This document shows, one piece after another, positions 8,520 through 9,614 of a DNA stretch of 64,000 bases. The position numbers and the translations under genes were made by a program. Under the pieces are notes generated by a model. It ran no database searches, was not told where the DNA came from, and was given only the letters and a program-made list of their open reading frames with translations. The number at the start of each line of letters is the position of its first letter. The stretch's first letter is position 1. Source of the DNA: Escherichia coli (GTDB lineage: Bacteria > Pseudomonadota > Gammaproteobacteria > Enterobacterales > Enterobacteriaceae); NCBI RefSeq assembly GCF_003019035.1, contig NZ_CP027447.1. One strand, written 5' to 3'.

Positions 8520-9614
8520 TTAGAACTGGTAAACCAGACCCAGAGCTACGATGTCATCGGTGTTGATGCCAGCAGCGCGGGTGAACTGGTTGTCGTCCAG
8601 CAGGTTGATTTTGTAGTCAACGTAGGTGGACATGTTTTTGTTGAAGTAGTAGGTCGCACCAACATCAACATATTTCAGGATATCTTCGTCGTCGTAGCCA
8701 CGACCCAGGTTTTTACCTTTAGACTGCAGGTAAGCCAGGGACGGACGCAGACCGAAGTCGAACTGGTACTGAGCAACAGCTTCGAAGTTCTGTGCTTTGT
8801 TCGCCCAACCCAGGGAACCTACGCGAGTTGCGTTGTAGGTCTGGGTGTACTGAGCAGCCAGGTAGATGTTGTTAGCGTCGTATTTCAGACCACCAGTGTA
8901 GGTTTCAGCACGGTCGCCAGTACCGATCAGGCCAGTGTTGTTCTGATCCCAGGTACGTTTGGAGCTGGAAACTGCAGCACCGATACCAAAGCCTTCATAA
9001 TTGTAAGTAATAGAACCACCAACACCGTCACCGTTCTGCTCAAATACATCATCACGGCCATTAGTGGTCATACCTTCGCCATGAGCACTACCGTTTTTAC
9101 CCTGATACTGAACAGCAAAATCAAGACCGTCAACCAGACCGAAGAAGTCGGTGTTACGGTAGGTCGCGAAACCGTTACCACGCTGCTGCATGAAGTTATC
9201 AGAATCGTAGGTATCACCACCGAATTCTGGCAGTACGTCGGTCCAGGAAGTAACATCGTAAACAACGCCGTAGTTACGACCATAGTCAAAAGAACCAACG
9301 TCCTGGAATTTCAGACCAGCGAATGCCACACGGGTCCAGGAACTATTGTCACTTTCAGGTTCGTTACCTTGAATCTGATATTCCCACTGACCATAACCGG
9401 TCAGTTGATCAGTAACCTGAGTTTCACCTTTGAAGCCAAGACGCATGTAGGTCTTGTCGCCATCTTTAGAGTCGTTATCGGAGAAATAGTGCAGGCCGTC
9501 AACTTTACCGTACAGATCTAATTTGTTGCCGTCTTTGTTGTAAATTTCAGCAGCGTTTGCTGCGCCTGCTACCAGCAGAGCTGGGACCAGGAGGGACAGT
9601 ACTTTAACTTTCAT
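8520..9614 (-). CDS. ompC: Outer membrane porin OmpC (variant allele, 364 aa)
   Basis: [26 protein letters not shown]...LGLVYQF with porin signal peptide and C-terminal Phe; differs from the recalled K-12 protein in length and in loop segments. Confidence 0.93.

Follow-up and report, generated by a model that had tools for sequence, protein, structure and literature searches.

The ompC gene in the 64,000-nucleotide stretch of E. coli DNA analysed here (hereafter, the window) is best explained, with a probability of roughly 0.9, as the normal, functional ompC of a phylogroup-F-like commensal E. coli, carrying a common allele of the OmpC20/6104H type with a loop surface different from that of K-12. 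The allele is already known, being both common and catalogued, and both a crystal structure and functional tests have been published for a near-identical protein. What is new here is detail of annotation, namely the assignment of loop types d1, a11 and a, and the absence of resistance substitutions; the biology was already known.

Identity, context and prevalence of the allele

The ompC open reading frame is located at positions 8520-9614 on the minus strand and consists of 364 codons, with an ATG start and no interruption. The translated protein matched the NCBIfam model for porin OmpC (NF007841) over residues 1-364 with 743.8 bits against a cut-off of 484, while the models for OmpF (487) and PhoE (470) both scored under their own cut-offs, and Pfam PF00267 (Porin_1) matched with 470 bits. 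A Sec signal peptide and the C-terminal residues VYQF are present, and the mature N-terminus agrees with the AE(V/I)YNK pattern that serves as a criterion for OmpC, with V3I as the N-terminal change of the mature protein relative to K-12. The gene order is apbE-ompC-micF-rcsD, with apbE (ftp) at 7353-8408 on the minus strand, downstream of ompC, and rcsD at 10353-13025 on the plus strand. The features of the gene and its surroundings are as follows.

8520-9614, minus strand: ompC coding sequence, 364 aa plus stop, comprising a 21-aa signal peptide and a 343-aa mature porin (open reading frame, NF007841, Pfam PF00267, 100% DNA match in SCU-301 and IAI39)
9552-9614, minus strand: signal peptide codons, same as in K-12; mature chains in the PDB start to align at query residue 22
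8482-8501, minus strand: intrinsic terminator of ompC, 3' of the stop codon, consisting of a hairpin (AAAGGGCC-TGCG-GGCCCTTT) and then a run of T
9615-9947, no strand: divergent regulatory region between ompC and micF, with 2 substitutions and one boundary indel relative to K-12
9948-10041, plus strand: micF small RNA gene, divergent from ompC (116.8 bits with Rfam RF00033, for which the gathering score is 79)

A sliding-window comparison with K-12 found 2 differences within 9874-10073, the micF region. As judged from these features, the window ompC is most probably a normal, functional chromosomal porin gene, for which expression dependent on OmpR/EnvZ and on osmolarity is predicted. The probability that it is a pseudogene, an unexpressed gene or an assembly artefact is practically negligible: nothing in support of such a reading of the window ompC was found, and it is contradicted by the uninterrupted frame and the full-length family match, by the conservation of the promoter region, micF and the terminator, and by the recurrence of the identical sequence in complete genomes independent of one another and on 1000 or more contigs.

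The same intergenic region differs in two of five other sampled E. coli genomes (MB10 and Ecol_542), in which an IS1 transposase gene is located about 200-300 bp upstream of ompC (L005 1-7 and L008 1-106). In these two strains IS1 lies inside the ompC-micF regulatory region and may change porin expression; it is absent from the window.

The predicted protein is identical to RefSeq WP_000865538.1, which is annotated in SCU-301 and in the reference strain IAI39, both with a 100% DNA match, and exactly this protein was found on at least 1000 public contigs. An ompC gene that is at least 99% identical is present in 518 of the 5,426 complete E. coli genomes, and strains with the allele are frequently of commensal, animal or environmental origin. 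Over the first 25 kb the window is 100% identical to SCU-301, a commensal strain recovered by rectal swab from a healthy student, with 3 mismatches in the remaining 39 kb; the reference genomes IAI39 and SMS-3-5 are among the next-closest matches to the first 25 kb, which are 99.2% identical. The loop types of the window protein are also represented in the catalogue of Beck et al. (2016), as L4-d1, L5-a11 and L7-a, with the exact L4, L5 and L7 peptides found there.

Loop differences and mosaic structure of the gene

We compared the window protein to the product of MG1655 ompC (b2215), which served as the K-12 reference. The first-pass annotation had described a non-K-12 allele of 364 aa as against 367 aa in K-12, in agreement with both the open reading frame and the MG1655 translation; identity between the two proteins is 91%, and the alignment has a net gap of 3 residues in L4. 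Boundaries of loops and strands were taken from the structure-based alignment in S1 Fig of Beck et al. (2016; PMC5056734). The machine-read text of that figure is garbled in places (it prints G at D116 of 2XE2) and was used for the K-12 segment boundaries alone; as a check, the K-12 segments taken from it were joined end to end and reproduced the mature sequence of K-12 exactly.

A total of 37 aligned positions differ from K-12, of which 30 are in extracellular loops and 7 are outside them. This corresponds to 30 of the 118 loop positions (27 substitutions and 3 gap columns) as compared to only 7 of the 228 non-loop positions, an odds ratio of 10.8 (Fisher p = 7e-10), so that the concentration of changes in external loops proposed from the sequence at first reading is borne out: the differences lie mainly in the loops, and the protein is neither changed preferentially in its strands nor identical to the K-12 allele. 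By loop, there are 3 differences in L1, 5 in L2, 1 in L3, 13 in L4 (10 substitutions and 3 gap columns), 7 in L5 and 1 in L8, and none in L6 or L7. The 7 non-loop changes are V3I, Q33K, N144D, D187N, G195A, I197V and N336D. The loops are listed below.

9462-9482, minus strand: L1, SDNDSKD, with 3 substitutions relative to K-12 SDNKDVD
9342-9371, minus strand: L2, the trimer latch, 10 residues, with 5 substitutions relative to K-12 QGNSAENENN; the latch residue E66 is kept
9195-9272, minus strand: L3, the constriction loop, with G116D (codon 9204-9206) as its sole change; the PEFGG motif, D105 and E109 are kept
9033-9098, minus strand: L4, 22 residues, type d1 (Beck et al., 2016), a net 3 residues shorter than K-12 L4 and with about 10 residues substituted
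8913-8957, minus strand: L5, 15 residues, type a11 (the CFT073 type), with 7 substitutions relative to K-12 RTDAQNTAAYIGNGD
8688-8711, minus strand: L7, NLGRGYDD, type a, the short form, same as K-12 and without the 4-residue insertion of the GVIN type
8556-8603, minus strand: L8, 16 residues, with a patch of CFT073-type sequence; all amino-acid differences from OmpC20/2XE2, two in number, are located in it

Both of the variable peptides quoted in the first-pass annotation are present in the protein, the 13-residue one covering L1 together with the beginning of strand 3, the 26-residue one spanning L4; the changes in L2 and L5 and G116D in the constriction loop L3 were absent from it. Its description of the beta-strands as conserved holds, given only 7 changes in 228 non-loop positions, but the C-terminal region is only nearly so, with D329A in L8 and N336D adjoining it (K-12 numbering). 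The net charge of L4 shifts from +1 in K-12 to -2 in the window protein, and F161, which belongs to the GFTS motif and is the only Phe of K-12 L4, is replaced. Residues K16, D18, R37, E66, R74, D105, E109, R124, S271 and Y310 are kept, as is PEFGG, and by these residues the transverse field of the constriction zone is intact, with K16, R37, R74 and R124 facing D18, D105 and E109. The roles of the constriction residues, and of E66 in the L2 latch, have been described by Lou et al. (2011; PMC3203869).

The closest characterised relative is OmpC20, also known as OmpC-6104H (PDB 2XE2; WP_000865539.1, the “KTE21” type), which shares 341 of the 343 mature residues with the window protein (99.4%). 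Loops L1, L2, L3 (with D116), L4 (d1), L5 (a11), L6 and L7 (a) are identical in the two proteins, and the genes differ at 7 nucleotides. The two amino-acid differences are in L8, where R is replaced by Q and D by A in the window protein (Q322 and A326 in its mature numbering), as a result of a patch of 6 nucleotides in which the sequence is that of the CFT073-type allele. K-12 OmpC (b2215; PDB 2J1N) resembles the window protein in its locus and predicted regulation, in its signal peptide and barrel strands, and in the constriction residues, L6 and L7, whereas L1, L2, L4 and L5 are replaced in the window protein, with L4 being 3 residues shorter, G116D and D329A added and F161 lost. CFT073 OmpC (WP_000865543.1; PDB 2XE1), in turn, has the same L5 (a11) and L8 sequence, but is 375 aa long and differs in its long L4 (b1, NDPDFTGHG), in an L7 insertion (GVVAG) and in L1 and L2.

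Divergence from K-12 at the DNA level reaches its peak inside ompC, with 10-26% per 200 bp at 8874-9473, as compared to 0-5.5% in the flanking 15 kb. We analysed codon alignments of the window gene with those of K-12, the CFT073 type (WP_000865543.1), the KTE21/OmpC20 type (WP_000865539.1), an O111 allele and a 373-aa allele. In the part that begins with strand 4 and includes L5, synonymous divergence from K-12 is high or reaches saturation. The segment that runs from strand 11 to strand 16 then differs from K-12 at a single nucleotide, and after it the differences cluster in L8. The window gene and the CFT073 type have no nucleotide differences in alignment codons 221-300 (L5 through strand 14) and diverge strongly elsewhere. 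The 7 nucleotide differences from the KTE21/OmpC20 type comprise 6 that are clustered at L8, where the window gene has the CFT073-type sequence, and 1 in alignment codons 41-60. The window ompC is a recombination mosaic at the nucleotide level, which fits the modular, recombining loop combinations that Beck et al. (2016; PMC5056734) describe.

In the history that we propose, L1, L2, L4 and L5 of the window allele would stem from a different and old allelic lineage, together with an L3 that carries G116D. The 5' two-thirds of the gene is the part deeply diverged from K-12, while L5 and the sequence downstream of it are in common with the CFT073 allele, and the short patch in L8 is likewise of CFT073 type. 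A foreign-species donor of the divergent 5' part was considered and rejected: the best non-Escherichia proteins, from Citrobacter and Enterobacter, are 84-88% identical and thus below other E. coli alleles, and no donor was identified because identity outside Escherichia is lower than among E. coli alleles.

Pairwise Nei-Gojobori dN/dS is below 1 in all partitions, with values of 0.13-0.16 for L1, L2, L4 and L5, and we make no claim of positive selection, because of these low ratios and because synonymous sites are saturated, as seen in L2 and L4. Ratios well below 1 in every partition would also be compatible with neutral drift in weakly constrained loops, without any effect on recognition by phages, toxins or antibodies, an explanation that we judge to be decidedly unlikely and that is weighed below against studies of OmpC as a receptor.

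Receptor recognition and permeability

The fold of the porin has been solved for the 99.4%-identical protein as a 16-strand trimeric beta-barrel (2XE2; PMC3203869). OmpC20 superimposes on K-12 OmpC at 0.44 Å r.m.s.d., with substitutions mostly in L2, L4 and L5 and a shorter L4; the other changes are G116D in L3, which is otherwise identical, and residues of the strands that face the membrane (Lou et al., 2011; PMC3203869). The crystal-structure mapping of loop differences proposed in the first-pass annotation has in this way already been published for a protein that is identical at 341 of 343 residues, and it places most differences in L2, L4 and L5 (PMC3203869). An AlphaFold2 model of the window protein itself reached a mean pLDDT of only 30 and a pTM of 0.28, because the alignment of 55 close homologues was too shallow and too similar.

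From these comparisons, the window ompC is predicted to encode a 16-strand trimeric general-diffusion porin with barrel, latch and constriction residues as in K-12. OmpC20 is a functional porin that supports growth and permits sugar permeation similarly to K-12 OmpC; its constriction radius equals that of K-12, its entrance is more negative and its outer vestibule is more than 1 Å narrower (PMC3203869). For the window protein, solute diffusion would be broadly unchanged, with an outer vestibule that is probably more negative and slightly narrower.

These features of the vestibule bear on a reading of the allele as an adaptation to antibiotics, akin to the clinical OmpC mutants and selected for reduced entry of beta-lactams, which we regard as very improbable. 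It is true that cefotaxime killed OmpC20-expressing cells more slowly than cells that expressed K-12 OmpC, and that OmpC20 has D116 in L3 and the narrower and more negative vestibule, but Lou et al. expressly refrain from using K-12 OmpC and OmpC20 for such a comparison and report the same constriction radius for both (PMC3203869). The identification of the window gene as a clinical resistance allele was rejected, since D18E, S271F and R124H, the three resistance substitutions of that clinical series, are all absent from its protein. The distribution of the allele among commensal, animal and environmental strains and the origin of the source strain, a rectal swab from a healthy student, also argue against selection by antibiotics, as does the wild-type quinolone-resistance region of gyrA in the window.

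With regard to receptor function, the most direct comparison is with 6104H OmpC, that is, the protein of structure 2XE2, in which L4, L5 and L7 are those of the window allele. In the work of Beck et al. (2016; PMC5056734), this protein was produced and yet did not serve as a receptor for CdiA-EC536, a toxin-delivery protein, so that the 6104H allele confers resistance to CDI-EC536, whereas other OmpC alleles do serve CdiA-EC536, and loop grafts transfer susceptibility. The same study describes OmpC loop types that recur in many combinations across strains. Both the lack of recognition of an allele with the same L4, L5 and L7, together with the transfer of susceptibility by grafts, and the recurrence of loop types in many combinations argue against neutral drift as the origin of the loop differences. 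A receptor specificity different from that of K-12 OmpC, as proposed in the first-pass annotation, is thus supported by published work on the near-identical 6104H allele, as far as CdiA-EC536 is concerned; for the phages T4 and PP01 an altered recognition can be suggested by analogy.

Phage T4 cannot use the OmpC protein of O157, although this is 94% identical to K-12 OmpC (PMC5221442), which is a further argument that loop differences are not without effect. According to unpublished preliminary data reported in the same paper, a Phe in K-12 L4 is needed for T4 adsorption (PMC5221442), and with F161 replaced, recognition of the window allele by T4 may be altered. For PP01, adsorption is decided by the 4-residue L7 insertion GVIN alone, and several substitutions in L5 are tolerated (PMC12892980). 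The first of these observations speaks against drift and the second for it, as do the similar growth support and sugar entry of OmpC20 and K-12 OmpC (PMC3203869). The window allele has the short K-12-type L7 without GVIN and may accordingly not be recognised by PP01. Whichever allele the native strain carries, its OmpC may be masked by O-antigen (PMC5221442).

On the preferred reading, as a common OmpC20/6104H-type allele with an altered loop surface, CdiA-EC536, tail-fibre tips of the T4 and PP01 types, and antibodies would meet a surface unlike that of K-12 OmpC. The changed loops may likewise affect the binding of antibodies, and phages, CDI and immunity might together provide the selection that maintains the diversity of OmpC loops. 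Colicins had also been named among the ligands of OmpC loops at first reading; for group A colicins, however, the porin used is mainly OmpF and not OmpC, and the colicin part of the earlier receptor claim is weak.

The pair of residues in L8 that separates the window protein from OmpC20 (Q for R, A for D), located in the CFT073-type recombination patch, could alter recognition by one or another tail-fibre tip of a phage or variant of CdiA, or change the charge of the vestibule and with it the entry of beta-lactams. We consider such an effect unlikely; if present, it would make the window allele functionally distinct within the OmpC20/6104H class. Variation in the OmpC loops helps to decide which T-even-type phages, toxins of contact-dependent inhibition (CDI) and antibodies engage an E. 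coli strain, and the ompC allele of a strain is useful for the prediction of phage host range and for the design of phage cocktails.

Other features of the window

Several other differences from K-12 MG1655 were observed in the window. The spacer between rcsB and rcsC (13693-13777) is about 85 bp long and contains one REP-like palindromic unit, as compared to about 199 bp and two tandem copies in K-12; an apparent divergence spike of 37% in the sliding-window comparison is due to this spacer indel. The gene yfaS (26549-31063; alpha-2-macroglobulin family) is an intact open reading frame of 4,515 bp, whereas yfaS of K-12 MG1655 (b4500) is annotated as a pseudogene. Between glpQ and inaA (50078-52319), an intact gene for a LysR-family regulator and an adjoining MFS transporter gene are present, where K-12 has only a short remnant of the yfaH pseudogene.

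The gene gyrA (33544-36171) has a wild-type quinolone-resistance-determining region (S83, D87), so that neither of these two positions carries a chromosomal mutation to fluoroquinolone resistance. Between gyrA and ubiG (36600-40079) are genes for a protein of the mandelate racemase/muconate-lactonizing-enzyme family, an MFS transporter and a GntR-family regulator, the last of which is annotated as frameshifted in SCU-301. Since gyrA and ubiG are directly adjacent in K-12 MG1655, this segment represents a small strain-variable islet.
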